Positions 40,002 through 64,000 are shown, numbered from the stretch's first letter. The stretch is DNA of 64,000 nt from an uncultured cyanobacterium (GCA_963803805.1 CAWDOD010000008.1:64001-128000), one strand, 5' to 3'. Notes: generated from the sequence alone by a model not told the origin. Made by a program: numbers and translations.

Positions 40002-43000
40002 ATGATCCGCAAGAATACCACTACCTCTTCAGGCGAAAATAACTTTTTCATAGTCAGTATCGGCGCTTCCGCTGGTGGTGTCCAAGCCTTAGAGTCATTT
40101 TTTGGTAACGTCCCAGATCACCCCAATGCTGCTTTTGTCGTCGTACAGCATCTTTCTCCCAATCACAAAAGCATGATGAGCGAGATTCTTCAACGGCAGA
40201 CAGCAATGCCTGTACAGGAAGTAGAAGATCAAATGCCCTTGGAGCCAAGTAAAGTTTATGTTTTGCCTCCTGGGAAAAGTTTAGTCTTAGAAAATTGCTC
40301 CTTACGCCTCCAAAAAAAATCAGAAGCACGCAACTATCCTATTAATCAATTTTTCCAATCTTTAGTCGAAGAATGGGGAGAGCGAACCATCGCTATTCTT
40401 CTTTCAGGTACTGGTAACGATGGAACAGAAGGATTACAAGCGGTTAGCAGAGCCGGAGGAATTGCTTTAGTGCAATCTTCAGAAACGGCCCAATTTACTA
40501 GTATGCCTAGTAGCGCTATTCCCTCTGGTTTAGTCGATGAAGTCCTTTCCCCCCAAGATTTAGCCCAAACCGTTTTTGAGTTAATTCGCTTTTCAGAAAA
40601 CTTTCCTAACTCCACAGCAGAAGAGGCTAGTTTAATTGATCCTGATCTGTTGCAAAGAATTCTTGATGTGCTTGCTGAGCGGGAAGAAATTGACTTCTCC
40701 CATTACAAAGTTAGCACCCTAAGCCGCCGCATTCACCATCGCTGCGCCTTAACCAGGAAAAGTAGCTTAGAAGATTATATTGGTTTCCTAGAAGATTCTG
40801 AAGAAGAGCAGAAATTGTTGCGTCAAGATTTACTTATTGGGGCAACCTGCTTCTTTCGCGATCGCAGCGCTTGGGAATTTCTTGAAACTAAAGTATTACC
40901 AAAAATAATTGCTGAACTACAACCCCAACAACAACTAAGGGTTTGGGTTTCAGCCTGTGCCACAGGGGAAGAAGCTTACTCAATGGCGATTTTGGTAGAT
41001 GAAGCCATTCGCAGAGCAGGAAAATCAGTACAAGTGAAAATTTTTGCTACTGATCTAGATACCAATGCCCTAGAGGTAGCTGCTCAAGGTATTTACCCCG
41101 AAAGCATTGCCAGTGATATTTCTCCAGAGCGTTTAGAATACTACTTTACCTCTGACAGCAACAACTTTAGGGTTAAGCGATCTCTAAGGGAAATGCTGAT
41201 TGTTGCCCCTCACGATCTGACTAAAAATGCAGGCTTCTCCAAAATGAACTTGGTAAGCTGTCGCAATGTTTTAATTTATATGCAACCGCAACTACAACAA
41301 CAGGTTCTGCGTTTACTGCATTTTGCTTTAGGTTCCCATGGAGTTCTATTTTTGGGCAGTTCCGAAACCCTAGGGGGTTTAGAAGAGGAATTTACCCCCC
41401 TAAATAACAAGTGTAAAATTTTTCGCAAACGGCGGGATAATCAACTATCCTTAATGCCCATTACTAGGCAAACTATCGTTACCCCCATCCACCAAGCATC
41501 TAGCCGTTCAAAAAGTAGGCAACAGCAACTAGACAGGCTTTTAGGAGAAGTATTTAAGTATTGTTTATCAGAGCGGCAAATTACCTGCTTATTAGTTAAT
41601 CAAAATAATCAACTGCTGCGGGTTTTTTACAATGCTGCTCGTTTATTAGAATTTCCCGTTGGGCAGCCAGTTTTAGATGTTACTGAAATCGTTCATCCTA
41701 GTTTAAAGCTTCCTCTTAGTACCGCCTTACATCGCACTAAGCGAGACAAAACCCCAGTCCTCTATACAGGAGTTAAACTAGAAAGAGATGGTGAACAACG
41801 AAATATTAGCCTGCGGGTAGGCATAGATGAAAGTAGTCGCCACAGCGAAAACCATCGCATTGTGGTTTTAGAAATAGAAGAACAACCAACCCCAGTTTCC
41901 ACTGTGGCCCTCGCTTTTGACCTAGATACAGAAGCGACTCAGCGTATCACCGAGTTAGAATACGAACTGCAACAGACTCGTGAGAATTTGCAAGTTACCA
42001 TTGAAGAATTAGAAACTACCAACGAAGAACAGCAAGCAACCAACGAAGAATTACTAGCTTCTAATGAAGAGTTGCAAAGTACTAACGAAGAACTCCAGTC
42101 AGTTAACGAAGAGCTTTATACAGTTAATGCAGAGTATCAGTCTAAAATTCAGGAACTGACACAGCTTAACAATGATATTAATAACTTACTCCGTAGCACT
42201 AATATTGGTGTTGTCTTTCTGGATCGGGATTTGAATATTCGTAAATTTACCCCTGCAGCAACCCGTGCCATTAATATTAAATCAACAGATATCGGCCGCC
42301 CCTTAGCAGATATTACCCATAACCTAAGCTGTTCTGACTTACTCGAAATTCTCCAGCAAGTGGCAGATACAGAAGAACCAGTAGAGCAAGAAGTCTGTTT
42401 TGCTGATTCCGATGAATGTTCCTTAATGCGGGTAAATCCCTATTTTCAAGACAATGCTGGTAGCAATGGTGTGGTAGTTACTTTTGTTGATATTGATGAG
42501 TTAAAGCGAGTACAAGATGAACTTTATCAAGCTAATGAAATTTTAGAAAATCTCTATGCTACTAGTCCTGTCGGTTTATCTTTGCACGATAAAGATTTAA
42601 AGTTTTTGCGTATCAATGAAGCTCTTGCTGGCATTAATGGTTATTCTATCGAAGAGCATTTAGGTAAAACTTTACAAGAGCTTATTCCTGAGTTAGCACA
42701 GCAGGTTGAACCCTTACTGCGTCAAGTAATAGAGACTGGTGAAGCGATTTATGGCATAGAAATTTGTGGTAACACAGCAAGAGATTCCAGTCAAGAGCGC
42801 CATTGGATAGGTAGCTACTATCCTGTTGATTTTCTGCGGGATGGGTTGGGAGTTGGTGCTGTAGTTGTGGAAATAACTGAGCGAATTCGCTCTGAAGAAG
42901 CCCTAAAACGCAGCAAAGCAAAGCTTTTACAAGCACAGCGCTTAGCTCAAGTGGGCAACTGGGAATGGGTAATAGAGGAAGGAAAAGAACTAAATGAGGC

Positions 43001-44507
43001 CCAAATAAATTGCTCAGAAGAATTGGTTGGTATTTATGGATTTACTCCTGACCAAGAATTGCCAACCTTTGCCGAACTACTCCAACACCATAATCCTAAA
43101 GACAGGGAAATACTGCAACAAGCCATAAAACAGCTACTTGCAGAGGGTAGTCCTTACAACTTAGATTTACAATACAATCGCCCAGATGGAGAAAGGCGTT
43201 ACTTAAATATGATTGGTAGAGCAGTTATTGATCAGGAAGGGAAAGTAACCAAACTCTACGGTGCAGTAATAGATATTACTGAGCGCAAGAAAATTGAAGG
43301 AAAATTAGTAGAGCAAAATCAAGCTTTGGAAGAAGCGATCGCAGTTGCCCAAGCAGCAGATTCTGCCAATCAAGCTAAAAGCGAATTTTTGGCGAATATG
43401 AGTCACGAAATCCGCACCCCCATGAATTCTGTGTTGGGGGTTAGTCAACTTTTATCACAAACAGATTTGAATCTTGAACAACAGAGACTGCTGGAAACCT
43501 TGAGAAGCAATGGAGAAAAGTTACTGGCACTTATTGATGATATCCTCGATTTGTCTAAACTGGAAGCCAAAAAACTGCAACTAGAATCAAGGGAATTTAA
43601 TCTTGATGCTTTAGGCAATAATCTCAGGAATTTGTATGATGCTCAAGTGAAGAAAAAACAACTGGAATTTGCCATTGAGATTGCTGCCGATGTACCTCGC
43701 AACTTAATTGGTGATGAATTTCGCCTCCAGCAAGTGCTAAGTAACTTACTCAGCAACGCTATGAAGTTTACAGAGTCTGGACAGATTACTGTAGCTATTG
43801 CTCAGCAATCGGAACAAGAAGATGATAATTCTTTGGCTATCCTCCGGTTTGAAGTGCAAGATACAGGCATTGGTATTCCTGTTCAAGCCCAAGAAGAATT
43901 ATTTCAGCCCTTTATTCAAGTTGATGCCTCCACAACCCGCCAGTATGGAGGAACCGGGTTAGGATTAACTATTAGCCGCCGTATCATACAATTAATGGGA
44001 GGAGAAATTGGTGTTACGAGTACTTCGGGTGAAGGTTCCAACTTTTGGTTTACAGTTCCTTTAGAAGTGGTTGCAACTCCTACTTCCTCCCCTACATCAC
44101 AAAAACCTGATGCAGCCAAATCTGCGGTTGTATCCCTAGCCAATCTCAAAGTGCTAATTGTCGAAGATCGAGAAGACAACCGTTACATACTCCAACTAAT
44201 GGTACAAAGATTAGGCTGTCAAAGCGATTGGGTTGACAATGGACAAAAAGCTGTAGAACACTTGCTAGAAAACGATTACAACATCATCCTTATGGATTGT
44301 CAAATGCCAGTCATGGATGGCTACGAAGCGACGCAAATCATACGACAAAGAGAAGAAGAAGCGCAACGTAAGGTGATTATTGGCCTTACTGCTAATGCCA
44401 TGGAAGGCGATCGCGACAAGTGTTTAGCTGCTGGTATGGATGATTATCTTAGCAAACCCATTATGTATGATGCTTTGGCAAAGGTGTTGAGTTATTGGGC
44501 TAATTAG
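40002..44507 (+). CDS. CheB/CheR fusion with PAS domains, histidine kinase and receiver
   Basis: [14 protein letters not shown] (CheB); [10 protein letters not shown] (CheR); coiled coil; [18 protein letters not shown]. Confidence 0.93.
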
Positions 44508-44532
44508 GTAATGGGTATTGAAGATAGTAATT

Positions 44533-46792
44533 ATGATTAAAAAGCCAAAATTAAAAAGTAGCTTCCGTTGGGAAAAAGTCGATTCACAAGGGAGCTTTTT
44601 ATTGTCTGAGAAAGAGACAGTATTTCTCAGGGAGCCTTTGTACCAAAAGTTAATACCCTTGCTTGATGGCAAGCGGACCCAGGAAGAGATTGTTACTCAA
44701 CTTAGCAACGAATTACCAGAGGCTTATATCTTTTATGGGCTTATGGAGTTGGAGCAGAAGGGTTTGATTATTGAAAATGCACCAATCTTAGAGCCGAATT
44801 TTACTTTATTGTGTGAGTCTTTGCTTGTTGATACTCAACAAGGAAAGCAGCAATCGCAATCAACTCAAGTTACCCTCAAAACATTGGGTTCTTTGTCTGG
44901 GAAAGATTTAAAGCAAAGCTTAGAGCAATCGTCAGATTCAAATTGCTGATGATGGAGATATTGAAGTTGTTCTAACCGACGACTATTTACGAGAAGAATT
45001 AGAGGCAATTAATCGAGTTAATCTTGCTAAATCTCGTCCTTGGATGTTGGTTAAACCTGTCGGCACTCTTCTTTGGCTTGGTCCAATCTTCCAACCGGGA
45101 AAAACTGGATGTTGGCAATGTTTAGCACAACGATTGCGAAATAATCGACCCTCAGAAGGATTTATCCAGCGACGCAGAGATAGTCTTTCTCCTTTAACAC
45201 CTCCCCTAGTTGGGTTGCCCACAACTCAACAGACCGCTACAGCCATGGCAGCCCAGGAAATTCTTAAATGGATTCTCCAAGGCAAAAATCAACGTTTAGA
45301 AGGGGTGATGGTAACTTACGACACCCTCTCCCTAACTTTGCAAAACCACATTCTTGTCAAACGCCCCCAATGTCCAGAGTGTGGCTACATCAAACCCCAA
45401 AACAACCGACCTTTACCCATTATTCTTGGTAGTCGCAAAAAAAGATTCACCAAAGATGGTGGACATCGTAGCCTCACCCCGGAGGAAACCTTAGCCCGCT
45501 ATCAACACCACGTTAGTCCTTTTTTAGGAGTAATACGTTCTATAGAAAAGCTACCCTACGATTGCAACGGCTTAGCTCATATCTACAGAGTCAAGCATCA
45601 TTGGGCTTCTGTCTTTGATGATTGCGAGAACTTGCAAAAAAATCTGGGAGGACGCAGTGCAGGTAAAGGTAGAACAGCAGCCCAAGGTAAAGCTAGTGGT
45701 TTAGGGGAAGCTATAGAACGCTATTGCGGCGTATTTCAGGGAGATGAAGTCACTATTAAGAGCAGCTACAAAAAGCTAGGCAATGACGCTATTCATCCAT
45801 ACAGTTGTCTTAATTTTAGTCAGACTCAATATGACAATCGTAAATCCTGGAATGCACAACGTACCACCCAGTTTCAAAGAGTACCCGAACCTTTTGATGA
45901 AACTAGAGAAATTGCCTGGACTCCGGTTTGGTCTTTGACTCAGCAAGACTTTAAATATTTACCCACAGCCTATTGTTATTTCGGCTATCCCCAATCGCTT
46001 CCTAGGGACTGTTGGGCTAACACCAATGGTTGCGCTGCGGGCAATACCCTAGAAGAAGCAATTTTACAGGGATTTTTAGAATTAGTAGAGCGGGACAGTG
46101 CAGCCTTGTGGTGGTACAACCGTTTACCCAAGCCGAAAGTTGCTTTAGAGACTTTCGACGAGCCTTATTTTCAAGCTATAACTGCTCATTACGACTCCCT
46201 AGGGCGGGAATTTTGGGTTCTTGATTTAACAAGCGACTTGAATATTCCCACCTTTGTAGCTATTTCACGGCGCTTTAACCATCCTGTAGAAGATTTAATT
46301 TTCGGGTTTGGTACACATTTTGACCCCAAACTAGCTATCCAAAGAGCGCTAACAGAAGTTTGTCAAGTACTCCCGGCAGTTTTGAACGCCAATCCTGATG
46401 GTACAACCCGCTATGCAAGTTCGGCTGAGTCTCAGATTCTCCACTGGTGGCAAACAGCAACCTTAGATAACCAGCCTTATTTAGCCCCCTACAATGACAT
46501 TGCCCCAAAATGTAGTGGTGACTATGAATATGAAGTTGTCTGGCATGAAGATTTCTTAGAAGACATCAAATACTGTCAACATCTTGTGGAAGAAAGAGGT
46601 ATGGAAATGCTCGTCCTCAATCAAACCCGCCCTGATATCGGTTTAAAAGTAGTCAAGGTCATTGTTCCCGGTTTACGACACTTCTGGAAGCGGTTAGCCC
46701 CAGGAAGATTATATAATGTCCCTGTCGAGATGGGCTGGCTTCAACAGCCATTGCAGGAGGAAGAATTGAATCCCATTCCTTTGTGGATGTAA
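44533..46792 (+). pseudogene. TOMM cyclodehydratase (leader-binding, E1-like, YcaO fusion), frameshifted near 44930
   Basis: Second frame is open upstream of 45044 (QIQIADDGDIEVVLTDDYL); CWQC, CPEC, DGGHR, GEAIERY, NGCAAG, ELVERD, C-terminal NPIPLWM. Confidence 0.88.
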
Positions 46793-46821
46793 ACAGTTAC
46801 CAGTGATCTTTTGTTTCTCTT

Positions 46822-47904
46822 ATGCTAAACGGTTATCGCATTATTGACGCAGACTCCCATGTTTTTGAGCCTCATTCTTTGTGGCAAACCTATCTTGAAC
46901 CTGCCTTTCGTGACTTTGCTCCTACACCAGACTTGCAGATTCAAGGGGTTTCGGTAATGACTAAATTTTCTAACACTCTGACTGATAAGGGGGCTGAAGA
47001 GGTGGCGCGATCGCATCCCCTCTCTTTTGCTCAAGAATTTAATCCAGAATCCCAAGTACAAGCGATGTACCAAATGGGAGTTGATGTTGCTTTTGTTTAC
47101 CCCACCTACCTAGCTTGGATTAGCGGTGTAGATACCATGGCTCCCCAACAAGTAGGGGCTTATGTCCGTGCCTACAATAGCTGGCTACGAGACTTTTGTA
47201 GTTATAACCCAGATATTTTAAAAGGAATCGGCGTTATTAATCTCCATGCCCCGGAGGAGATGGTTCCTGAACTGCAACGGATTGCTGATTTTGGTTGGAA
47301 AGCTGTTTACTTACGCCCTAATCCCGTTAAGGGAAGATTACTTAGTGACCCTGCTTATGAGCCGTTTTGGGCTGAATGCGAAAAACTCGACATTGCCGTC
47401 AGTCTCCACGAAACCACCCATAGTCGCGTCCCTAGTGCTGGTGCAGACCGCTTTCACAGCCGCTTTGCCCTACACGCCTGCTCTCACCCCATGGAACAGA
47501 TGATGGCTTTGTTAGCGCTGATTGAGGGGGGAGTTTTAGAAAACCATCCCCAGCTTAGGGTAGGATTTCTTGAATCCGGTTGCGGTTGGCTGCCCTACTG
47601 GTTGTGGCGACTTGACCGTGAGTACGAAGATTTGCGCTGGGAAGTGGGGGATAAGGTGAAGATGAAGCCCTCAGAGTATTTTCGCCGTCAGTGTTTTATT
47701 GCAGTGGAACCTTCAGAAACCTATATTCCTAAGCTGTTAGAGGAACTGGGAGTAGATAATCTCATTTTCGGTTCCGACTATCCCCATATCGACCACAACC
47801 CTGATGTGGTTGCTGATATGGTGGCTCTTGAAGGATGCTTAGGCAAGGAAGTTTTGCAAAAGATTCTTTGGGATAATCCCCGTCGGTTTTACGGTTTGGG
47901 CTAA
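46822..47904 (+). CDS. Amidohydrolase family protein (amidohydro_2-like)
   Basis: IIDADSH, SLHE, FLESG, FGSDYPH, NPRRFY. Confidence 0.9.
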   Translation: MLNGYRIIDADSHVFEPHSLWQTYLEPAFRDFAPTPDLQIQGVSVMTKFSNTLTDKGAEEVARSHPLSFAQEFNPESQVQAMYQMGVDVAFVYPTYLAWISGVDTMAPQQVGAYVRAYNSWLRDFCSYNPDILKGIGVINLHAPEEMVPELQRIADFGWKAVYLRPNPVKGRLLSDPAYEPFWAECEKLDIAVSLHETTHSRVPSAGADRFHSRFALHACSHPMEQMMALLALIEGGVLENHPQLRVGFLESGCGWLPYWLWRLDREYEDLRWEVGDKVKMKPSEYFRRQCFIAVEPSETYIPKLLEELGVDNLIFGSDYPHIDHNPDVVADMVALEGCLGKEVLQKILWDNPRRFYGLG

Positions 47905-47930
47905 ATAGTAAACAGATAAAAGATCATCAT

Positions 47931-47964
47931 GTAGGTTGGGTTTCGTCGCCTCAACCCAACTATC
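47931..47964. repeat. GTAG-type REP palindrome
   Basis: GTAGGTTGGGTT...AACCCAAC. Confidence 0.6.
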
Positions 47965-48017
47965 CTGTAGGTATCTATTTTGCTAGGATAAAGTTTTGAA
48001 TCTTAGGATCTTGAATC

Positions 48018-48668
48018 GTGCTAAGTGCAGATGCGTTGAGCTTTCAGGAATTTATGAACCGCGAATCTTTGTCAATCGCCACTTTACATGGTGCAGTTTT
48101 TGAGTTTTTGCGAAACCGCCAAGATGTGGTTGTATTTGGGGCGCAAGCGGTAAATGCCTATACTGGAGAGCCGCGTATGACTCAGGATATTGATGTTATG
48201 GCTCTACGAGGAGCAGATTTAGCCGAAGAGTTACGCCTTTATTTAAGCGTAGGCAAAGCCCGCCGCAGGCATCGCTTTTACATTGCTATGAGAGTGAGAG
48301 TAATTAAAGGGGGGTTAGGTTATCGGCTCTACCAAGTGCAAAAAACAGGTGATCGACATCTGGTTGATATTCGCCAAGTAGAGACTTTGCCAGAAAATCG
48401 TCCCTTTGAAGGGGTATTAGTGATGGCTCCGGAGTCGTTGGTGGTGAGCAAGGTAATTGCCTATTACCAACGACAAGGTAAGCCCAAGGCAGGAACAGAT
48501 TGGCGTGATTTGGCTCTGTTGTTGTTGGCTTTTCCAGAGTTGAAAGTAGAGTCTGGTGTTGTTTTAGCAGGTTTGAGGGCAGCAAGGGTAGAAGAAGCTG
48601 TCATCTCTTTATGGCGAAAGATTGTGGCAACGCCAATTGAGACTGATGATGAAGATGAGGATTTTTAG
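48018..48668 (+). CDS. Nucleotidyltransferase, AbiEii/AbiGii-like
   Basis: FGAQAVNAY...RMTQDID, K...DWRD. Confidence 0.75.
   Translation: MLSADALSFQEFMNRESLSIATLHGAVFEFLRNRQDVVVFGAQAVNAYTGEPRMTQDIDVMALRGADLAEELRLYLSVGKARRRHRFYIAMRVRVIKGGLGYRLYQVQKTGDRHLVDIRQVETLPENRPFEGVLVMAPESLVVSKVIAYYQRQGKPKAGTDWRDLALLLLAFPELKVESGVVLAGLRAARVEEAVISLWRKIVATPIETDDEDEDF
48250..48270 (+). mobile_element. 21-nt small dispersed repeat (SDR5-type) inserted in a HIP1 site
   Basis: GCG + TAGGCAAAGCCCGCCGCAGGC + ATCGC. Confidence 0.8.
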
Positions 48669-48760
48669 AAACTACTCCAAAGCAAAACTGACCAATACCT
48701 AGACACAGAAGCAATGTTATCCTAAAATCAACAGCCATTGAGTAAGAGGTCTACCAAACC

Positions 48761-48859
48761 ATGACTCTTTCATCACAACAACTCATCGAAACAGAAGAGG
48801 ACTTCTATCCCTATAGTGACGGCGAACCAATGGCAGAAAGCGATCCTAATTTTAGTTGA
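48761..48859 (+). pseudogene. N-terminal fragment of a Uma2-family gene
   Basis: MTLSSQQLIETEEDFYPYSDGEPMAESDPNFS-stop; GAGG RBS. Confidence 0.75.
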
Positions 48860-50658: not shown

Positions 50659-50772
50659 AGTTTTTCTGATGGAAAAGTTAAGAGTAAATCCACTGTTTCT
50701 CTAGACTAATTTTACTCTTCTGAATTTAATTTTCACTCAATCTATTAACCTTAACTTAAGGAGAATTTCACA

Positions 50773-51420: not shown

Positions 51421-51461
51421 ATTTAGGAAAAGTTTTTACTGCTTTTTGAATTAGATACTTG

Positions 51462-51495
51462 GTCTCCTAAATTTTTCGATTTTAGGAGACTTTTT
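51462..51495 (+). terminator. Rho-independent terminator
   Basis: GTCTCCTAAA / TTTAGGAGAC stem followed by TTTTT. Confidence 0.75.
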
Positions 51496-54600: not shown

Positions 54601-57194
54601 AAGGAATAGCTTGTCAGTTTCATGGAAATATAACTGCACCTTGGCTAGTTCATGTTAAATATTCTGAAAAGATCAACGATGAGGGAATTAATTGCAGTTT
54701 ACAAGTTGGAGATTTGCAAGTTGCTGGCTACACACAGGGCCATGCTTTTTATACTTCAATATATCAAGGCAAAAATTTAGAAATATTGCTTAAAGAACTT
54801 GAAAGAAGACTTTCTTTTGGTAAAGAAACTCAAAACTATTGGTCAGTGGGCTGTCTTCTCGCTGCTAAAATAATCCTGATTAACTTAGTAGGTAAAAGTC
54901 GAGACAGATTATGTTTTGAATTAAAGGAAACATCTGAATCTGATTTTTTAAATGATTGTCAACAAAATCAAGCGTTATCTGCACTTTGTCTTTATCAAAT
55001 ATTAAAAGCACAAGTACTTTATTTGTATGAGGAACCTGCTCCTTTAAGCTTACTAGAACAATCAGCTAACCTATTAGGTTTTATATTTGGCACAATATCA
55101 ATAGCCAAACATAACTTTTACTACTCCCTCACCCTCCTCGCCCATTATCCCAACGCCTCACCCCAACAACAACAGGAATACTGGCAGCAAGTCGAAACCA
55201 ATCAAAAACAGATGCAAGCATGGGCTGATAACTGCGAAGCTAACTTCCTCCATAAATACCTCCTCGTTGCCGCAGAAATGGCTCGTATCTCCGATAACTG
55301 GCAAGAGGCAATGGAACTTTATGACCGTGCGATCGCATCTGCCAAAAAACATGAATTTGTCCAAAACGAAGCCTTAAGCAACGAACTAGCGGCTAAATTC
55401 TGGTTAGGACGAGACAAAAAAGACTTTGCTAAACTCTACATGAAAAAAGCCCACCAAGGCTACCAAATCTGGGGGGCAAAACGCAAAGTTGAAGACCTCG
55501 AACAAAAGTATCCCCAGTGGTTTACCTCCTCCTCCTCTAAATCCAACAGCATCACCACCACCCCAACCATAACAACCTCCGGACGCTCTAGTAAATACCT
55601 TGATATCGACACAGTTATCAAAGCCTCAGAAGCCCTATCAAAAGAAATTGTCCTCCAAGACTTACTGGCAAAATTAATGAAAGTCGCTATCGCTAACGCT
55701 GGGGCGCAAAAGGGTTTCTTAATCTTAGAAAAAGAGGGCAATTGGTTCATCGAAGCAGAGGGAAACATCAACGACAGTGAAGCAAAACTATTAGAATCGA
55801 TTCCCATCCAAGCCCAAGAACACCCAGAAAACGCCTTACTTTCTTGCGCGATCGCTAACTACGTAATTCGTCTCAAAGAAAACGTCATCCTCGACGATGC
55901 CACCAGTGCCGGAAACTTCACCAAAGACCCCTACATCCTCACCAACCGCCCCAAATCCATCCTCTGTACCCCCCTAATCAACCAAGGGAAACTAAGCGGC
56001 ATCCTCTACCTAGAAAACAACCTCACCACTAACGCCTTTACCCGCGATCGCGTAGAAATCCTACGCACCCTCTCTGCCCAAGCCGCCATCTCCATCGAAA
56101 ACGCCCAACTTTACCAACGTCTCGAAGACTACAACCGCACCCTAGAACAACAAGTAGCTGAACGTACCGAACAGTTACAGCAAAATAACCAAGAATTAAG
56201 CCAAACCTTACAAGAACTCAAAACCACCCAAAACGAACTAATCCAATCAGAAAAAATGGCTGCCCTCGGTCAACTAGTTGCTGGTGTGGCTCACGAGATC
56301 AATACCCCCCTGGGAGCTATCCGCGCTGCCATCGGCAATACAGATAAAGCTCTGCAAGATTCCCTATCCCAACTACCTCACCTCCTCCCCCAACTCAACC
56401 CACAACAGCAAACTGACTTTTTCAACCTCATTGACCAAGCCCTCATCCCCCACGAAAGCCTGAGTACTCGCGAAAAACGCAAAATCAAGCGCAGCCTTAC
56501 CGCAAAACTTAACTCATCTGAAGTTGCCGAAGCTAAACAAGTTGCCCATCTCCTTACCGAAGGGGGATTGCATAATGAGATTACTGAAACTCAACTTGCT
56601 CTGTTGCAAACCCCACAAGCTAAACAGATTGTGCAAATTGCTTACAACATTGCCCGCCTTAATGCTAGCAGTCAGAATATTAATAATGCCGTAGAAAGAG
56701 CTTCAAAGATTGTCTTTGCTCTCAAAAGCTACGCCCGTTACGATTATAGCGGAGAAAAGCAAGTAGCTAAAATGACTGATGGTTTAGAAACTGTCTTGGA
56801 ACTTTACCGCAACTATCTTAAAAAAGGTGTTACAGTCACTCGCAATTATCAAAGCGTACCAGCAATTCCCTGCTATAGTGATGAACTAGTACAGGTCTGG
56901 ACAAACTTAATCCATAATGCTATACAAGCTATGGATGGTCAGGGTAAATTGGAAATTGGGGTAGCTCAGCAACAAGAAAATATCCTTGTGGAAATTACAG
57001 ATTCAGGGGCAGGTATTCCCCCAGAAGTTGCTGAAAAAATCTTCGACCCCTTCTTCACCACCAAACCTGCTGGGGAAGGTAGCGGCTTGGGGTTAGATAT
57101 TGTTCGCAAAATAATTACCAAACACCAGGGAAATATTACTTTTGAATCCATTCCCGGTAAAACCACTTTTAAAGTTACTTTACCCATTAGTTAG
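51633..57194 (+). CDS. Ser/Thr kinase - AAA ATPase - GAF - histidine kinase
   Basis: HKDINPSN, DFG, GYSGIGKT, LDDLQWAD, YLENN, VAHEINTP, G boxes. Confidence 0.93.
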   Translation: MSTITAYEIIAKIYDSANSVVYRAKHKTGDHKVILKVLKQDYPTPSELTRYKQEYEITRSLKIAGVVTAYELFPYENTLAIALEDFGGQSLSLLLQSQSFTLLEFLQIAIQTAQILEEIHSANIIHKDINPSNILLNPETGQVKIIDFGLSTVFAKEKPLIKNPDVLEGTLAYMSPEQTGRMNRSLDYRTDLYSLGATFYTLLTKRLVFETQDALELVHCHLAQAPTPPQQIDPAIPPILSQIILKLLAKTAEERYQSALGLKADLEECRLQLTQTGKIEEFPLARHDVVEQLQIPQKLYGRASEIEQLLSAFNRVSQTEETTTANHLEMMLVGGYSGIGKTALIQELYKPLSQKHGYFIAGKFDQFQRNIPYSAPISAFKSLVRQLLTESEEQLQQWREKLQTALGINGQVIVDGVPEIEEIIGPQPPLQPLEPAQAKNRFHQVFRDFMRVFCKRSHPLVIFLDDLQWADFGTLELLELMMSDQQLESLLLLGAYRDNEVDNNHPTIVTIERLKEQGAVVNQIILKPLNSDHITQLLRETLHRDAESVTSLTELILQKTSGNPFFINEFLTNLYQENLLTFNRNSQSWQWEESQIQALGITDNVVDLMVGKLRKLPEATQKALRLGACIGNRFELSILAIIYEQSSAETFDALLPAIQQSLIEPTSELETTSKTAVESTLVITNYKFRHDRIQQAAYNLIEQNHSKTVHLQIGKLLLANLQPEEQQEKIFTLVDHLNKGLELLESKEDKIKVLELNLDAGKKAKDAIAYPAAQDYLRTVEKDFPGDIWQESYAMALDLYKELAEIEYLNGNLQESQELLRLAIERVKSPLDGAEFYYLQIVQLGLQGKLEQAIEVGRVALQTLGENLPEDNFQAAFEQELREYHQNLGERSIEELYDSPEMNFLDKQAIFKILSRIFPPALILGAGLANLICTKMVNLNIKYGHTPISPIAYSFFSSINSSALKEYRTGYELTSLSIKLSNKYENLLSKGIACQFHGNITAPWLVHVKYSEKINDEGINCSLQVGDLQVAGYTQGHAFYTSIYQGKNLEILLKELERRLSFGKETQNYWSVGCLLAAKIILINLVGKSRDRLCFELKETSESDFLNDCQQNQALSALCLYQILKAQVLYLYEEPAPLSLLEQSANLLGFIFGTISIAKHNFYYSLTLLAHYPNASPQQQQEYWQQVETNQKQMQAWADNCEANFLHKYLLVAAEMARISDNWQEAMELYDRAIASAKKHEFVQNEALSNELAAKFWLGRDKKDFAKLYMKKAHQGYQIWGAKRKVEDLEQKYPQWFTSSSSKSNSITTTPTITTSGRSSKYLDIDTVIKASEALSKEIVLQDLLAKLMKVAIANAGAQKGFLILEKEGNWFIEAEGNINDSEAKLLESIPIQAQEHPENALLSCAIANYVIRLKENVILDDATSAGNFTKDPYILTNRPKSILCTPLINQGKLSGILYLENNLTTNAFTRDRVEILRTLSAQAAISIENAQLYQRLEDYNRTLEQQVAERTEQLQQNNQELSQTLQELKTTQNELIQSEKMAALGQLVAGVAHEINTPLGAIRAAIGNTDKALQDSLSQLPHLLPQLNPQQQTDFFNLIDQALIPHESLSTREKRKIKRSLTAKLNSSEVAEAKQVAHLLTEGGLHNEITETQLALLQTPQAKQIVQIAYNIARLNASSQNINNAVERASKIVFALKSYARYDYSGEKQVAKMTDGLETVLELYRNYLKKGVTVTRNYQSVPAIPCYSDELVQVWTNLIHNAIQAMDGQGKLEIGVAQQQENILVEITDSGAGIPPEVAEKIFDPFFTTKPAGEGSGLGLDIVRKIITKHQGNITFESIPGKTTFKVTLPIS

Positions 57195-57338
57195 AGGACT
57201 TAGATAAGTAGTTTTTCTATTAGTCAGTAATTGTTTTTAACTACTTTTCTTGGCATTTTTACCAGGTTTTACAAATTATCTTGCGTATAATGAACTATGA
57301 CTTAATACTGACAGTAGAGCGATCGCAGGTCTTGCACA

Positions 57339-60300
57339 ATGGGTACAATCACGGCTTACAAAATTATTGCCAAAATCTATGACAGCGCCAACTCTATCGT
57401 TTACCGCGCTAAACATAAAACTGACAACCAAAATGTCATCCTCAAAGTACTTAAACAAGACTATCCCCCACCGCGACGCATCACTGAATTTCAGAGGGAA
57501 TATGAAATTACTAACTCACTAAATTTAACTGGTGTAGTTAAGGTTTACGACATCATAGAAACTGGTGATCATCGCTGGCTAATCGTAGTAGAAGATTTTG
57601 AAGCTCAATCCCTAAAACAAATCATCCAAAACCAGCAATTAACTCTAGATGAATTTTTGTTTGTAGCGATTAAAGTTAGCCAAATTTTGGGTGAAGTGCA
57701 TCAGAGACACATTATCCACAAAGATATCAATCCTTCTAACATAGTTTGGAATCGGCAAACCAACATAATTAAAATCATCGACTTCGGAATTTCTACTAAA
57801 CTCTCACGAGAAACTACAACTTTCCGTAACCCAAATCAGTTGGAAGGTACTTTAGCTTACATATCCCCAGAGCAAACCGGCAGGATGAATAGGGAGATAG
57901 ATTACCGGAGCGACTTTTATTCCCTCGGTGTCACTTTCTACGAATTGCTAGTAGGGCAACTACCTTTTGAAACAACAGAGCCGATGGAGTTGGTACACTC
58001 CCACATTGCTAAACAACCAATATCACCTCACCAGAAAAAACAAGACATTCCCTTAGTTATTTCCCAGATTGTGATGAAGTTGATGGCTAAAACGGCCGAA
58101 GAAAGATATCAAAGCGCTTGGGGATTAAAAGCCGATTTAGAAACTTGCTTCCAGGAGTTGCAAAACCGTGAGCAGATTTCTGCATTTGCTCTGGGGAGTC
58201 GGGATGTTTGTGAGCAATTCCAAATTCCCCAAAAACTTTATGGGCGACAAGAGCAGGTAGAGCAACTCTTAGCAAGCTTTGAACGAGCTAGCGCAGGTGC
58301 AATAGAAATGTTACTAGTAGCGGGTTATTCCGGCATTGGTAAGTCAGCTTTAGTTAACGAAATTTACAAGCCAATTACCAGGCAAAAAGGATATTTTGTT
58401 TCCGGTAAATTTGATCAATTTAGGCGAGATATTCCTTATGATGCCCTGATTCAAGCTTTACAAGAGTTAGTAAGGCAGTTGCTAACAGAAACTGAAGTGC
58501 AATTGCAACTATGGCAGCAAAAGTTATTAGAAGCTTTGGGTCGTAATGGTCAGGTAATTATAGATGTCATTCCTGAAGTAGAGCTAATTATCGGTAAACA
58601 GCCAAGAGTCCCCCAGCTAGGGCCTACTGAGTCTGAAAATCGCTTTAACTTAGTTTTTCAAAACTTTATGGGGGCATTTGCTCAGAAAGAACATCCCTTA
58701 GTGATTTTTATTGATGATCTGCAATGGGCCGATTTAGCATCTTTGAAGTTGCTGGAGTTGTTGATGACTCAAAGCGATCGCCAGTATCTTTCTTTAATCG
58801 GTGCTTATCGAGATAATGAGGTTAGTGCTGTTCATCCTTTAATCCAAACCCTAGAACGAATTAAAGAGCAAGATGCTAAGGTAAATGTGATTACCCTAGA
58901 GCCATTGAAGATCAATTGGGTTAACCAGTTAATTGCTGATGCTCTGAAATGCTCTACAGATAGATCACAACCCCTAGCAAAGCTAGTATTCAAGAAAACT
59001 AACGGCAATCCCTTCTTCTTAACCCAGTTACTCCAATCTTTATATACAGAAAACTTGTTATCTTTTGCTCCTCATAGCGGTCTTTGGGAGTGGGATATTG
59101 ACCAAATTCAAGCTGTAGGAATCACTGATAACGTTGTTGAGTTGATGGTCGGCAAAATTGAAAAGTTAGAAGACCGAACTCAGAAACTATTAAAATTAGC
59201 TGCCTGTATTGGTAACAAATTTGACTTAGCAATTCTTTCAGTAATTAGCGGCAAATCCATAGCAGATACTGGAGTCGATTTATGGCCTGCTTTGAAACAA
59301 GGTTTGATTAGTCCTTTAAGCGATGCCTACAAACTGCTCATACTGCAACGTGAAAATATCAGCCTTCAACCCTCAGCAATCTCTTCTGTTGCTATCCCTT
59401 ACAAGTTTCTGCATGACAGAGTGCAGCAAGCGGCCTATGCTCTGATTCCTGAAGCACAAAAACAACAAGTTCACTTACAAATTGGTAAGCTGCTGTTGCA
59501 GAATACTGATTCAGAGAAACTAGAAGAAAACATCTTCGATTTAGTTAACCAGCTTAATATTGGGGCAGATTTAATTAGTGATGTTTCCGAAAGAAACGAA
59601 CTAGCTCGATTAAATCTCATTGCTGGCAAAAAAGCAAAAGCATCCGCAGCCTATCAAGCAGCAGTCAAATACTTAAGGGTAGGTTTGGGATTGCTGGCAT
59701 CGGATAGTTGGGAAAAAGAATACAACCTGACTCTTGCTTTATATGTAGAAACTGTTAGTGCAGAATATCTTAACACCGAATTTGCATCAGCAGAAAAGTT
59801 AGCTGCCACAGTTTTGGAACAAGTTCAAAGCACAATAGATAAAGTCGAAGTCTATGAGATTAAAATCCAGTCCTATAGATCTCAATCTCAATTTCAAAAA
59901 GCTATAGATACTGCCCTAGAAATTTCAGCACAACTAGGAGTAGTTTTGCCATCACAGCCAAGCCAAGAGGATATTTATGCAGAAAAACAAGCTATAGAAG
60001 CTTTTTTAGAAGACAAACAAATTGAAGATTTAACTCAGTTACCAGAAATGGCCAATCCTTATAAAATAGCAACCTTAAGGATTTTAGTTAGTATCTTGAG
60101 TTCGGCATTCGCTAGCAATCAACCCTTGTTTGCGTTACTAACATTGAATATTGTCCATACATCTATCAAATATGGCAATTCCCCTATGGCTGTTGGTGGC
60201 TACAGTTGTTACAGTTCTTTATTAGCAACTACTCAAAGTCTTGATGATGCTTATAAATTTGGTCAACTATCTTTTAATTTGTTAGAAAAATATAATCTAC

Positions 60301-62882
60301 AACAACTCAAACCCATGTTGTTGAATAACTTTCATAATTTCGTGACGCATTGGAAATACCCTATACGAGACACTTTCTCCGTTGTTGAAGGAGTTAATTT
60401 GGGGATTGAAAACGGAGATTTTGAATATGGAGGTTATTGTTGTTCTACTTATATAAATCACCAATTTTGTGCAGGGGAAAGCTTGCCAAACATGGAGCAA
60501 ATTTGTGCTAAATACCTTAAATTAATGCACAAATATAAGCAAAATCTTACAGTTAATAACTTAAGCTTAGTAAGGCAACTGACGTTGAACTTACGAGGCA
60601 AAGCTAATCAAAAAGAAGAAATTCAAGGAGAAGCTTTTGACGAGCAAACTATTGTTCCTATTTATGTGGAGATTAAAAACTATACTGGACTTAGTTTTTT
60701 TTATCTCTATAAATCTATACTCTCCTATATCTTTAAAAATTTTGCCAGAGCATTAAATAACGCTCAATTATACAGCGAATATGGAAACTGGGCTGCGGGA
60801 ATGCTGTGTACAGCAATGGGCAATTTTTACGATTCTCTCGCTCACTTAGCCCTCTATTCTCAAGTTGATACTGACAAGCAAAAACAATACCTCAAGCAAG
60901 TAGCAGCTAATCAAAAACAGATGAAGTTCTGGGCAGAAAATGCCCCAGCCAACTATCAACATAAATATGATTTAGTTATGGCAGAAACAGCCAGAGTTAC
61001 AGGTAAAAATGCTAAGGCAAGGGAATATTATGACCGTGCCATAGAAGGTTCTCAAAAACACAATTTCCTCCATGAAGAAGCCATAGCCTATGAACGAGGA
61101 GCCGAATTTTATTTCGCTATTGGTAGAGAAGAAATAGGTCGGCTCTACATGAAGAATGCTCATTATGCTTACCAGCGCTGGGGTGCAGTCGCTAAAACAG
61201 AAGATATAGAAGCGGAATATCCCGAACTTTTTCGTGCTGCCCCATCCTCTCAAGAAAACATCTCCACTACTTATACTAACAGCACTGCTAGCACAGAAGT
61301 ATTAGACTTAGCCACAGTAATCAAGTCTAACAATGCTCTTTCTAGCGAAATCGTCTTAGAAAAATTGCTAGCCAACTTGATGAATATTCTCATCGAAAAC
61401 GCTGGGGCTGAGCGAGGAATTTTGATCTTACCCCGTGGTGAGAAACTGTTAGTTGAAGCAGCCAAAGAAACCAACTCAGAAAACGTTTCTATATTGCGAT
61501 CGCTCCCTATTGAAGAGTTTGCTAAACTTTCTTGTAAAATCGTCAATTATGTCGCCCGCACTCGCGAAGCCGTAATTTTGAACGATGCTTCCGAAGCAAG
61601 CAATTTTAATGATGATGCTTACCTGCAAGAGTATGATTGTAAATCAATTGCTTGCACTCCTTTAATTAATAGAGGTCAACTCCAAGGTATTATTTACCTG
61701 GAAAACAACCTCACCACAGGGGCTTTCACCAAAGAGCGTATGGCTTTGTTAAAAACCCTTTCCACCCAAGCTGCCATCTCCATTGAAAACGCCCAACTTT
61801 ACCAACGACTAGAAGACTACAACCGTACCCTAGAACAACAAGTAGCCGAACGTACCGAACAGTTGCAGCAAAACAACCAAGAACTTAGTCAAACTTTACA
61901 AGAGCTTAAAACCACCCAAAACGAACTGATTCAATCAGAAAAAATGGCTGCCCTCGGTCAACTAGTTGCTGGTGTAGCCCACGAAATTAATACGCCCCTA
62001 GGAGCCATCCGCGCCGCCATCGGTAACACAGATAAAGCCTTGCAAGCTTCATTATCCCAACTACCACAACTCCTACCTCTACTTACCCCCCAACAACAAA
62101 CTGACTTCTTTAATTTCCTCGAAGTAGCCCTCACCCCCCACGAAAGCCTCAGCACCCGTGAAAAACGTAAAATCAAACGCACTCTCACCGCAGAACTAAA
62201 ATTATCTGAAATTGCCGAAGCTAAACAATTGGCCCATCTCCTCACCGAAGGGGGATTGCATAATGAGATTAGCGAAACTAACCTGGCTCTATTGCAAACT
62301 CCCCAAGCTAAACAAATTGTCCAAATCGCTTACAACATTGCCCGTCTCAACGCTAGCAGCCAGAATATCAACAACGCCGTAGAACGAGCTTCAAAAATCG
62401 TCTTTGCCCTCAAAAGCTACGCCCGTTACGATTCTAGTGGGGAAAAGCAAGTTTCTGACATTACTGACGGCTTAGAAACCGTCTTGGAACTGTACCGTAA
62501 CTATTTTAAAAAAGGTATCAAAGTCACTCGCAACTATCAAAGCGTACCACCAATTCCCTGCTATGGTGATGAATTGGTACAGGTATGGACAAACTTAATC
62601 CATAATGCTATACAAGCTATGGATGGTCAGGGTAAATTAGAAATTGCTGTAGCTCAGCAACAGGAAAGTATAGTTGTCGAAATCACAGACTCAGGTGCAG
62701 GTATTCCCCCGGAAGTTGCTCCCAAAATCTTCGACCCCTTCTTCACCACCAAACCTGCTGGGGAAGGTAGCGGCTTAGGCTTAGATATCGTCCGTAAAAT
62801 AATTACTAAACACCAGGGAACAATAACCTTTGAATCTATCTCCGGCAAAACCACTTTCCTGGTTACTCTACCCATTAGTTAA
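57339..62882 (+). CDS. Ser/Thr kinase - AAA ATPase - GAF - histidine kinase (paralogue)
   Basis: HKDINPSN, GYSGIGKS, IDDLQWAD, YLENN, VAHEINTP. Confidence 0.93.
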   Translation: MGTITAYKIIAKIYDSANSIVYRAKHKTDNQNVILKVLKQDYPPPRRITEFQREYEITNSLNLTGVVKVYDIIETGDHRWLIVVEDFEAQSLKQIIQNQQLTLDEFLFVAIKVSQILGEVHQRHIIHKDINPSNIVWNRQTNIIKIIDFGISTKLSRETTTFRNPNQLEGTLAYISPEQTGRMNREIDYRSDFYSLGVTFYELLVGQLPFETTEPMELVHSHIAKQPISPHQKKQDIPLVISQIVMKLMAKTAEERYQSAWGLKADLETCFQELQNREQISAFALGSRDVCEQFQIPQKLYGRQEQVEQLLASFERASAGAIEMLLVAGYSGIGKSALVNEIYKPITRQKGYFVSGKFDQFRRDIPYDALIQALQELVRQLLTETEVQLQLWQQKLLEALGRNGQVIIDVIPEVELIIGKQPRVPQLGPTESENRFNLVFQNFMGAFAQKEHPLVIFIDDLQWADLASLKLLELLMTQSDRQYLSLIGAYRDNEVSAVHPLIQTLERIKEQDAKVNVITLEPLKINWVNQLIADALKCSTDRSQPLAKLVFKKTNGNPFFLTQLLQSLYTENLLSFAPHSGLWEWDIDQIQAVGITDNVVELMVGKIEKLEDRTQKLLKLAACIGNKFDLAILSVISGKSIADTGVDLWPALKQGLISPLSDAYKLLILQRENISLQPSAISSVAIPYKFLHDRVQQAAYALIPEAQKQQVHLQIGKLLLQNTDSEKLEENIFDLVNQLNIGADLISDVSERNELARLNLIAGKKAKASAAYQAAVKYLRVGLGLLASDSWEKEYNLTLALYVETVSAEYLNTEFASAEKLAATVLEQVQSTIDKVEVYEIKIQSYRSQSQFQKAIDTALEISAQLGVVLPSQPSQEDIYAEKQAIEAFLEDKQIEDLTQLPEMANPYKIATLRILVSILSSAFASNQPLFALLTLNIVHTSIKYGNSPMAVGGYSCYSSLLATTQSLDDAYKFGQLSFNLLEKYNLQQLKPMLLNNFHNFVTHWKYPIRDTFSVVEGVNLGIENGDFEYGGYCCSTYINHQFCAGESLPNMEQICAKYLKLMHKYKQNLTVNNLSLVRQLTLNLRGKANQKEEIQGEAFDEQTIVPIYVEIKNYTGLSFFYLYKSILSYIFKNFARALNNAQLYSEYGNWAAGMLCTAMGNFYDSLAHLALYSQVDTDKQKQYLKQVAANQKQMKFWAENAPANYQHKYDLVMAETARVTGKNAKAREYYDRAIEGSQKHNFLHEEAIAYERGAEFYFAIGREEIGRLYMKNAHYAYQRWGAVAKTEDIEAEYPELFRAAPSSQENISTTYTNSTASTEVLDLATVIKSNNALSSEIVLEKLLANLMNILIENAGAERGILILPRGEKLLVEAAKETNSENVSILRSLPIEEFAKLSCKIVNYVARTREAVILNDASEASNFNDDAYLQEYDCKSIACTPLINRGQLQGIIYLENNLTTGAFTKERMALLKTLSTQAAISIENAQLYQRLEDYNRTLEQQVAERTEQLQQNNQELSQTLQELKTTQNELIQSEKMAALGQLVAGVAHEINTPLGAIRAAIGNTDKALQASLSQLPQLLPLLTPQQQTDFFNFLEVALTPHESLSTREKRKIKRTLTAELKLSEIAEAKQLAHLLTEGGLHNEISETNLALLQTPQAKQIVQIAYNIARLNASSQNINNAVERASKIVFALKSYARYDSSGEKQVSDITDGLETVLELYRNYFKKGIKVTRNYQSVPPIPCYGDELVQVWTNLIHNAIQAMDGQGKLEIAVAQQQESIVVEITDSGAGIPPEVAPKIFDPFFTTKPAGEGSGLGLDIVRKIITKHQGTITFESISGKTTFLVTLPIS

Positions 62883-62964
62883 GTATAAAAAGTAAACAAA
62901 TTCCCCTACTACTAGATTCAGGGTTTATCTTGAGAGATAATACTTCTGCTTGAAAAAAACCCTA

Positions 62965-63003
62965 ACTTATTACTTACTACTTACTACTTATTACTTATTA
63001 CTT
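62965..63003. repeat. Heptamer tandem repeat (ACTTAYT)
   Basis: About five and a half copies; source of the spurious TYYLLL extension in the ORF track. Confidence 0.75.
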
Positions 63004-63009
63004 AAAAAA

Positions 63010-63408
63010 ATGAATGAAGCAGCAATTCTCTGTGTTGATGATGAAAGCGTTATCCTCGAAAGTCTCCAAGAACAAATTGGTCGCCACTTTGGGGATAAAT
63101 TTGTCTATGAAGCAGCCGAAAGTGGTGAAGAAGCCTTAGAAATTGTTGAAGAACTTCGTGAAGAAGGAGTCAAAATAGTTTTAATTGTCTCTGATTGGCT
63201 GATGCCGGAGATGCGAGGGGATGAACTTTTAGTTCGTATTCATGAGCAGTTTGGTAATGAGATTAAAACTATCATGTTAAGCGGACAAGCCGACGAGTCA
63301 GCCGTAGATCGAGCTAAAGAGGAAGCTAATTTGTATCGTTTCCTGGCTAAACCTTGGCGAGAAGAAGATTTAATCCAAGTCCTCTCAACAGCCTTGAACT
63401 CGATATGA
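63010..63408 (+). CDS. Single-domain response regulator
   Basis: CVDDE, VSDWLMP, MLSG, KPW. Confidence 0.92.
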   Translation: MNEAAILCVDDESVILESLQEQIGRHFGDKFVYEAAESGEEALEIVEELREEGVKIVLIVSDWLMPEMRGDELLVRIHEQFGNEIKTIMLSGQADESAVDRAKEEANLYRFLAKPWREEDLIQVLSTALNSI

Positions 63409-64000
63409 ACCGATTAGTAATTCTTGCAGTCGATGACGAACCGATGGTGCTAGAAAGCCTTACTGAGGAGTTAGAACGCACTTTTGGTCAAGATTACGAC
63501 ATCGAAGCGGCTGAAAGTGCTGAAGAAGCTCTCGAAATTATCGATGAACTAACCCAAGAAGGAAGCGAAGTAGCTATCATCGTTTCAGACCATTTGATGC
63601 CGGGGATGAAAGGGGATGAACTCCTGATTAAAATTCATCACCAATACCCCAGTTCCTTAAAGATTATGCTCACTGGACAAGCTGATGTCAACGAGGTGGG
63701 CAACGCTGTCAACTCTGCTAACTTGTACCGCTATATTGCTAAACCCTGGGATGCTAATGACCTCAACCTAACGGTTAAAGAAGCTCTCACCAAGTATGTA
63801 CAGAGAAAACAAATTGAACAACAGAATCTACAAATACAGGAAAAAGAGCGTCGCCTGACTCAGTTTTTAGAAGCAATGCCCATTGGTGTGGCGGTTCACA
63901 ATGCGGTCGGACAAATAACCTATGCTAATCACAAGGCCAAAGAGTTACTGAAGCTAGATGTTTTACCCGATACTAAAAGCGAGCAACTTTCGGAAGCTTT
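63405..64000 (+). CDS. Receiver plus PAS protein, partial (runs off window)
   Basis: ATGA overlap; MNRLVILAVDDE...VSDHLMP...KPW...EAMPIGVAVH. Confidence 0.88.
   Translation, partial: MNRLVILAVDDEPMVLESLTEELERTFGQDYDIEAAESAEEALEIIDELTQEGSEVAIIVSDHLMPGMKGDELLIKIHHQYPSSLKIMLTGQADVNEVGNAVNSANLYRYIAKPWDANDLNLTVKEALTKYVQRKQIEQQNLQIQEKERRLTQFLEAMPIGVAVHNAVGQITYANHKAKELLKLDVLPDTKSEQLSEA

Follow-up and report, generated by a model that had tools for sequence, protein, structure and literature searches.

A conserved heterocyclase, oxygenase and giant kinase cassette in cyanobacteria, predicted to modify the C-terminus of a nitrile-hydratase-like protein

What links a YcaO heterocyclase, an enzyme labelled as an amidohydrolase, a small precursor-like protein and two giant kinases when a cyanobacterium encodes them close together on a single strand? 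The question arises from a window of 64,000 nucleotides of an uncultured cyanobacterium (GCA_963803805.1 CAWDOD010000008.1:64001-128000), i.e., the whole stretch of DNA that was analysed, in which all genes of the cassette region, from position 40002 to 64000, are co-oriented on the + strand. The window's own genome is referred to as G000, and L- and G-numbers are labels for related loci and genomes. An initial annotation had proposed an undescribed locus for a peptide made on the ribosome and modified after translation (RiPP), whose product would be sensed by the kinases as a signal. We consider it rather probable that the cassette modifies the C-terminus of a dedicated protein of the nitrile-hydratase-like (NHLP) fold and that its genes are coupled to those of giant multi-domain kinases. 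Judged from homology and conserved motifs, the last residue of this small protein would most likely be turned into a thiazole or oxazole ring.

Conservation of the cassette across genomes

The window was surveyed by an open reading frame (ORF) listing with Pfam and NCBIfam scans, covering 13 main ORFs over 35.5-64 kb. The gene list and co-orientation of the initial annotation were borne out, as were the 25-nt gap before the heterocyclase ATG at 44533 and the 29-nt gap after the end of that gene at 46792. The E1-YcaO heterocyclase gene (44533-46792, split by a frameshift) is followed by the gene of a 360-aa PF04909 protein, a BarH-like member of the superfamily of amidohydrolase-related dinuclear oxygenases, or AROs (46822-47904; PF04909 E 5e-32, with the motifs given below). 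Further downstream lie the genes of p467 (49255-50658; 467 aa, with an N-terminal hydrophobic anchor and a C-terminal CMKCH), p215 (50773-51420; a 215-aa NHLP-related precursor or substrate) and giant kinase 1 (51633-57194).

Co-occurrence was assessed in 201 genomes, sampling the order of the window's organism, and in three sets of loci. The first consisted of stretches fetched around YcaO or precursor matches and probed by tblastn with the window proteins, the second of 20 further loci selected on the ARO gene alone, and the third of one genome per species, where at least 568 ARO relatives were found and the best 80 loci examined, 45 of them with full 10-kb flanks. YcaO, the PF04909 protein and the giant kinase were repeatedly found together in the first set, and a giant kinase homologue stood at each of its 20 loci with a full ARO. 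Among the 201 genomes a close ARO homologue was present in 49 and an E1-YcaO in 69; an E1-YcaO match lay no more than 10 kb from 47 of the 52 full-length ARO matches, and the ARO gene was present at 50 of 103 E1-YcaO loci. Selection on the ARO gene alone recovered the kinase at 15 of 20 loci (missing in four, and one cut by the contig end). For the best 80 of the at least 568 relatives the counts were 67 for YcaO, 70 for the kinase and 62 for both, and for the 45 fully flanked loci 43, 43 and 42, with a precursor-family match at 35 and p467 at five. Absence of co-occurrence elsewhere had been named as the finding that would count against a shared locus; the genes do co-occur (47/52; 42/45), and these counts rule out a chance juxtaposition.

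The gene order of the window, i.e., YcaO, ARO, p467, p215 and kinase, recurs in L050 and on a Gloeothece citriformis PCC 7424 plasmid, pP742401. There the heterocyclase is intact, at 750 aa, and identities to the window proteins are 75% (YcaO), 86% (ARO), 39% (p467), 50% (p215) and 65% (kinase). Almost all of the best 80 ARO loci are cyanobacterial. The large sulfur bacteria Ca. Parabeggiatoa and Thioploca account for three of them; these gammaproteobacterial loci (L171, L173 and L175) hold an ARO of 61-65% identity together with an E1-YcaO and a giant kinase, which suggests that the cassette has moved between phyla. The cassette is real, conserved, widespread in cyanobacteria and uncharacterised.

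Its composition varies. A genome of the window's own genus, G001, has a different, cyanobactin-like E1-YcaO locus (L017) with a PatG-type protease, only a truncated ARO fragment and no kinase, so the kinase-linked cassette is patchily distributed even within the genus. On a plasmid of Gloeothece verrucosa PCC 7822, a larger variant (L183, 8134-25080) combines two E1-YcaO genes with those of an ARO, a giant kinase, a SagB-family dehydrogenase, a p467-like protein and a precursor that ends PISAST. A radical SAM/SPASM enzyme lies between precursor and kinase in L049, L053 and L056, and an O-methyltransferase gene follows ARO in the variants L057 and L058.

One proposed member did not survive the comparison. 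The CheB-CheR-PAS-HisKA-HATPase-REC hybrid kinase (40002-44507; Pfam/NCBIfam), which the initial annotation had included in the cluster, is not conserved: other loci gave only generic histidine kinase domain matches, and synteny with a ~91% identical relative breaks at 44504/44533. Its place in the system is therefore unsupported.

A predicted C-terminal azole

The YcaO domain of the heterocyclase is complete (PF02624 1-325/325, E 1.3e-103; SagD family), TIGR03882 and TIGR03604 score 173.1 and 270.8 bits, above their respective cut-offs of 36.9 and 219.25, and the nearest solved structures in the PDB, MusD (2e-179), LynD (3e-170) and TruD (6e-167), are all azoline-forming heterocyclases. The cyclodehydratase of the initial annotation is real in its domains and coordinates, but it is not one open frame. 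An RRE-like winged-helix (RRE, RiPP recognition element) and the start of the E1-like domain are encoded in frame 1 (44533-44949; PF21084, E 1.5e-10), and the rest of the E1-like domain and the YcaO domain in frame 2, as a 582-aa ORF (45044-46792; PF02624), so that RRE, E1-like and YcaO parts do not form a single polypeptide in the window (frameshift at ~44933). Frame 1 stops at 44949, at a stop produced by the frameshift, and frame 2 is open from ~44922, with its first ATG at 45044, to 46792; the open frame of the window is 622 aa vs 743-827 aa in orthologues, with a span of 743-791 aa among the other full-length matches listed. The N-terminal part is 63-66% identical to the N-termini of the intact orthologues L002 and L013, and 67% to that of PCC 7424.

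A MAFFT DNA alignment with the two closest orthologues places one extra base in the window at ~44933-44936, within a frameshift site spanning 44924-44936. At this site the orthologues L002 and L013 carry GCGATCGC, and the window has a degenerate version of it with the extra base (44930). We take GCGATCGC to be the HIP1 palindrome, which is common in cyanobacteria. More than 100 orthologues of the gene are intact. In metagenome contigs of the ~91% identical relative, which diverge from the window upstream of 44533, the changes are -2 at 44924 and +1 at 44932, i.e., net -1, and the frame is restored. The frameshift arose either by mutation or in assembly, and unless the assembly is at fault this copy of the cassette may be inactive.

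This raises the alternative that the window holds a decaying remnant, in which a genuine frameshift has killed the sole E1-YcaO of G000 and the other genes are relics or have been re-used. We give this slightly less than an even chance. It is favoured by the one-base insertion relative to orthologues at a point where the close relative is in frame, by the single E1-YcaO match and single precursor match in G000, and by what looks like insertion debris inside the cassette. The latter comprises an AbiEii-like nucleotidyltransferase ORF (48018-48668; partial PF08843 match, 5e-8) and a Uma2-like N-terminal fragment of ~32 aa (48761-48859; Pfam), which stand between the ARO and p467 genes and had gone unreported in the initial annotation; the AbiEii-like ORF has no homologue in the related loci and is outside the conserved cassette. 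The spacing between ARO and p467 is accordingly 1.35 kb in the window vs ~310 bp in L050 and 18 bp in PCC 7424 (L182). Against decay of the whole locus, there is a single lesion, one that an assembly error could itself have produced, and the 360-aa ARO, p467, p215 and both kinases are full-length and conserved. Elsewhere, fragments of ARO and YcaO genes between two E1-YcaO genes in L013 (G012:C367, 5600-6600) are evidence of cassette duplication and decay in another genome.

The PF04909 protein is the part of the initial annotation that changes most, since the gene and its coordinates stand and the class does not: what had been called an amidohydrolase is an ARO-type oxygenase, BarH-like. The ARO superfamily is defined by an N-terminal D-x-H and a C-terminal D-x-P-H-x-D/E motif, which the available text of the defining study describes as missing from characterised PF04909 hydrolases and decarboxylases (PMC13154177). 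The window protein carries them as D11-S-H13 and D319-Y-P-H-I-D324, and both were found in 42 of 42 sequences, i.e., the window protein and the 41 homologues examined. The window protein is 71% identical to a diiron ARO from a 2026 study, UniRef100_B1WQZ4 (PMC13154177), and homologues at 71-72% identity are labelled 'BarH protein' by their sources. The best PDB match is the diiron monooxygenase PtmU3 (2e-37). With both ARO motifs present, a role as a hydrolase, whether leader peptidase or BotAH-like, was set aside. The window ARO is 63.6% identical to the single match on the plasmid of PCC 7822, the strain from which we take E0U9F9, an ARO of published activity, to derive.

That activity points to the chemistry. 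In vitro, LynB7 with Fe2+ and O2 converted (4R)-2-methyl- and 2-phenyl-thiazoline-4-carboxylic acid to thiazoles (PMC10127204), and E0U9F9, likewise with Fe and O2, converted 2-phenyl-thiazoline-4-carboxylic acid to the thiazole (PMC13154177). Members of the E0U9F9 clade have a thiazoline synthase as a neighbour in ~69% of cases, and the available text of the same paper gives no known product for the clade (PMC13154177). By its motifs and homologues, the window ARO is probably an azoline-4-carboxylate oxidative decarboxylase. As its clade relatives LynB7 and E0U9F9 turn thiazoline-4-carboxylate into thiazole, this enzyme could explain the missing SagB dehydrogenase, and it probably stands in for the SagB oxidation step that had been thought absent. 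An ARO match on a Burkholderia plasmid (36.6% identity) lies in a ferredoxin/dioxygenase context and was rejected as a member of an NHLP-Burk cluster, the proteobacterial system discussed below.

Which residue would be cyclised is indicated by the tail of p215, which ends ...PPSLYIPIAAC. The p215 family was found in 20 of the 201 genomes with a four-sequence profile, and has further members in the fetched loci. Its conserved C-terminal part reads ...[IV]PYPPRPAL..TVT..QLE.W...PP.PYIP, followed by four residues, and the family tail has the form YIPx[ST]x[CST]. Among 98 distinct tails, [YFW][ILVM]P stands at -7 to -5 in 92, C, S or T occurs within the last four residues in all 98, and the tail ends in C, S or T in 85, with Cys as the terminal residue in 27. 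The window tail is YIPIAAC, and relatives end YIPFGAS (L102) and YIPIAGT (PCC 7424), so that within the last six residues the terminal Cys, Ser and Thr, respectively, are the only cyclisable ones. With the window ending IAAC, terminal Cys215 is the predicted modification site.

The relationship of this family to NHLP precursors emerged from an hhalign comparison of the long family with short NHLP precursors of the same genomes, which matched over the C-terminal region (prob 96.1%, E 3.5e-9). Established models did not recognise the family itself. There was no NCBIfam match of p215 at E <= 0.01, none of 14 family members scanned matched TIGR03795 at E <= 10, in a comparison where the classic NHLP of L020 matched it at 6.7e-7, and an Atlas look-up of p215 yielded no usable match. 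One short family member matched TIGR03793 and TIGR04351, both under cut-off. TIGR04351 was rejected as the family's identity, with 0/201 genomes over its cut-off and its name absent from the literature searched.

Taken together, the RRE/E1-like domain would bind p215 via the long NHLP-like body, by homology to LynD, TruD and MusD, and the YcaO domain with ATP would close a ring, by cyclodehydration, between the last residue (Cys215 in the window, Ser or Thr in many relatives) and the carbonyl before it, giving a C-terminal azoline-4-carboxylate at -18 Da. The diiron, O2-dependent ARO would then oxidatively decarboxylate this ring to a terminal thiazole or oxazole, with removal of the carboxylate and a further -46 Da, a step suggested by the motifs, the 71% identity to a studied ARO and the activity of the clade on small-molecule surrogates. 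In this best-supported reading, cyclodehydration and oxidative decarboxylation are proposed from homology and published surrogate chemistry, and the coupling to the giant kinase from gene linkage. The product would stay in the cell and act with the Ser/Thr kinase-STAND-GAF-histidine kinase protein, most likely as a ligand or regulator, and Ser/Thr and His phosphorylation would pass the output on to the receiver proteins.

The kinases and the fate of the product

Two ~1,850-aa proteins with the Pfam architecture Pkinase-AAA_16-GAF-HATPase are encoded side by side. Giant kinase 1 consists of a Ser/Thr kinase, an AAA_16 STAND NTPase, a helical/TPR region, a GAF domain and a histidine kinase, and giant kinase 2 (57339-62882) has the same architecture. 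Homologues of kinase 1, at 54-65% identity, adjoin YcaO and ARO elsewhere, and the kinases of cassettes that hold p467 resemble kinase 1 more than kinase 2, which scores higher to kinases of loci lacking p467. Kinase 2 is also nearer to these latter kinases than it is to kinase 1. It may have been left over from a second cassette or recruited as a paralogue; there was no second YcaO, ARO or precursor for it in G000. A stand-alone receiver protein (62950-63408; PF00072, 5e-18) and a receiver-PAS protein cut by the window end (63354-64000; PF00072, 3e-17; PAS_8) follow, and such a pair after the kinase was clear in L094 only, with weak or no matches at other loci. The predicted complex of kinase 1 residues 550-1330 with p215 scored 0.00 in a run that had no controls, and it is no evidence either way.

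The kinase could also belong to the biosynthesis, phosphorylating tail Ser/Thr residues at -3/-2 in the manner of class III/IV lanthipeptide synthetases. Ser and Thr are indeed common at tail positions -3 and -2, and both catalytic motifs of the kinase domains, HKD..N and DFG, are intact (translations; invariant columns). However, the window end IAAC has no Ser/Thr, the tails FGAS of L102 and IAGT of PCC 7424 offer only the terminal residue, Pfam found no lyase or cyclase domain, and the GAF, histidine kinase and receiver domains indicate signalling. We regard a biosynthetic kinase as very improbable.

A more conventional alternative is an ordinary RiPP cluster, in which a protease from another locus cuts off the NHLP leader, a short azole peptide leaves the cell to serve as toxin, metallophore or pheromone, and the kinases are regulators or immunity sensors. 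NHLP-type leaders with an E1-YcaO are typical of exported RiPPs, and the nearest solved enzymes are cyanobactin and muscoride heterocyclases. Short CC-ended NHLP-like precursors accompany YcaO and ARO without a kinase at L098, L100, L087, L093, L172 and L174, and the variant cassettes carry tailoring genes, i.e., radical SAM/SPASM, O-methyltransferase and SagB. What such a cluster would need is nevertheless hard to find. The initial annotation was right that the locus has no SagB-type dehydrogenase, C39 transporter or protease; the SagB/nitroreductase, C39 peptidase, ABC transporter and subtilase families had no match in the 13 main ORFs, and protease, C39 and ABC exporter are likewise missing among 40 recurrent neighbour ORFs. 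The precursors have no Gly-Gly cleavage motif, the core would be just ~4 residues past the invariant YIP, and retention of the kinase in 43/45 fully flanked loci is unusually tight for a regulator. We therefore judge an exported peptide unlikely; with no protease or exporter conserved in the cassette, the product probably remains in the cell.

The initial annotation had proposed that the kinases sense the modified product as a signal, a role that we infer from gene linkage. A more specific version is that ATP and then Fe(II) and O2 are spent on replacing the C-terminal carboxylate by an azole, and that the STAND/TPR/GAF part of the kinase would read the tail and so report oxygen, iron or redox state, with an exported P460-like haem protein as a second input in one cassette subtype (A). 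This would be an analogue, in logic and not in ancestry, of hydroxylation-based oxygen sensing; we put it forward tentatively and consider both the reading and the analogy doubtful.

The P460-like protein of subtype A is p467, for which the initial annotation had described an exported CxxCH protein. Gene, anchor and CMKCH are real, and the protein is an accessory of this one subtype only: it was present in seven of the best 80 of at least 568 ARO loci, and stood directly upstream of the precursor gene in eight loci of the first set. It has 899 homologues at E <= 1e-5; among the 120 listed, the named ones are cyanobacterial and none had a Pfam family. C442, C445 and H446 are invariant in 64 homologues. 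An AlphaFold2 model from these 64 sequences has a predicted local distance difference test (pLDDT) value of 86.3 and a mainly beta fold (the first model, from eight sequences, was unusable at pLDDT 40.6). In VIA-align the top five matches of the model, with Z from 5.0 to 5.7, all belonged to cytochrome c'-beta/P460, and the next-best one dropped to Z 3.1. A Foldseek search of the PDB had no match at E <= 1e-3 (E >= 0.11), and there was no match to P460/c'-beta at sequence level, where the best E in a profile search of PDB sequences was 1.6. In its CxxCH near the C-terminus and its modelled, mainly beta fold p467 may resemble P460/c'-beta proteins, but it is ~3x longer. The model is suggestive of a possible P460/c'-beta-like cytochrome c. 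AAA_35 genes often accompany the p467 subtype; the window has none, and the copies in G000 are on other contigs.

Several observations weigh against a modified protein that is read by the kinases. The connection between these proteins is a predicted one, and in the window the YcaO is out of frame. In 13 of the 98 tails the terminal residue is F, L, V, W, M or R; one of them, L085, has no YIP tail and may not belong to the family. In the other 12 a C, S or T is followed directly by a final F, L, V, W or M (e.g., ACTF, LSCL and PVTF), with hydrophobic-ended tails at L161, L179, L176, L061, L178, L177, L124 and L099; a terminal azoline-carboxylate would be impossible on these tails without trimming. 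At L161 and L179, two to four such hydrophobic-ended precursor genes stand in tandem. LynB7 rejected a carboxamide analogue (PMC10127204), which makes action on internal azolines doubtful. The PCC 7822 cluster carries a SagB-family dehydrogenase beside ARO, so ARO is not always the sole oxidant. The kinase is missing from five of the 20 ARO-selected stretches, counting the one cut by the contig end, and loci without it indicate that the enzymology does not depend on the kinase, which could be a mere expression regulator. Lastly, p467 is predicted to be exported and the enzymes cytoplasmic, which is unexplained.

Outside the cassette, the upstream genes encode polyphosphate kinase 1 (35554-37722) and, at 37874-39754, a TPR-repeat Ser/Thr kinase; in other genomes the cassette shows no linkage to either. 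Rfam had no family within 39000-64000, and a promoter and terminator scan returned no more sites than were found in shuffles.

Comparison with known systems

No characterisation or product of the cassette was found in the literature searched for its components together, and the initial annotation was in this respect correct that the locus is undescribed. The closest described system is NHLP-Burk (PMC2887384; PMC4603692), a thiazole/oxazole-modified microcin (TOMM) cluster of Burkholderia, Delftia, Acidovorax and Sorangium with TIGR03795 precursors, a TIGR03882-type cyclodehydratase and a TIGR03903 kinase/cyclase (PMC2887384). It was defined bioinformatically by Haft, Basu and Mitchell in 2010, with no product or role given in the available text, and comprises NHLP-related precursors ending Cys or Cys-Cys, a fused cyclodehydratase and a large Ser/Thr kinase, with no transporter (PMC2887384). 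Recognition of NHLP by YcaO in general is treated in PMC12455567.

The likeness to proteobacterial TOMM/kinase clusters that the initial annotation had drawn is apt with respect to precursor tails, fused YcaO, kinase and lack of a transporter, but it does not extend to membership of TIGR03795 or TIGR03903. In both systems the precursors have a long body resembling a leader, lack Gly-Gly and finish in a very short Cys or Cys-Cys tail. Both also have a fused E1-YcaO (with the TIGR03882 domain found in the window) and a Ser/Thr-kinase protein of very large size that includes an AAA_16-type region, and neither has a linked transporter. In contrast, the cassette precursors do not match TIGR03795, and NHLP-Burk has a tandem precursor pair where the window has a single gene (some related loci have two to four). 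The cassette kinase has GAF and histidine kinase domains instead of a cyclase domain. The window kinases reach 140 and 152.4 bits against the TIGR03903 cut-off of 705.75, over the AAA_16 region only (profile 482-926), and Pfam found no cyclase domain in them. ARO is part of the core in the cyanobacterial cassette, which may be a further difference, and the host phylum is different.

The oxygenase itself shares with BarH, LynB7, DolJ and E0U9F9 the PF04909 fold, both ARO motifs and a thiazoline-forming enzyme as neighbour. BarH, LynB7 and DolJ act on released products of non-ribosomal peptide synthetases and polyketide synthases, whereas in the cassette the presumed substrate is formed by a YcaO at the C-terminal end of a ~200-aa ribosomal protein; the activity of BarH/LynB7-type AROs is known on small molecules, and action of the cassette ARO on a protein is predicted. 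The available text of the 2026 ARO paper mentions neither precursor proteins nor kinases (PMC13154177). LynD, TruD, PatD and MusD share the fused RRE-E1-YcaO architecture (E 1e-167 to 1e-179). Unlike cyanobactin pathways, the window has no PatA/PatG proteases and no cyanobactin precursor with recognition sequences (Peptidase_S8 and PatG domains had no match in the 13 ORFs of 35.5-64 kb), and the genes neighbouring cyanobactin and muscoride heterocyclases differ from those of the cassette.

The labels "amidohydrolase family protein" and "AAA family ATPase" mislead in these loci. If the kinase does read the mark, this would be a new coupling of a RiPP-type modification to signal transduction and would provide a first function for a class of ~1,800-aa cyanobacterial kinases. 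Joined to the conserved tail, the BarH-like enzymology of 2023-2026 leads to a prediction for mass spectrometry, i.e., a protein that carries a decarboxylated thiazole or oxazole at its end. The cassette is a cyanobacterial variant of the kind of system first reported in 2010, to which this concrete prediction of the chemistry can now be added.

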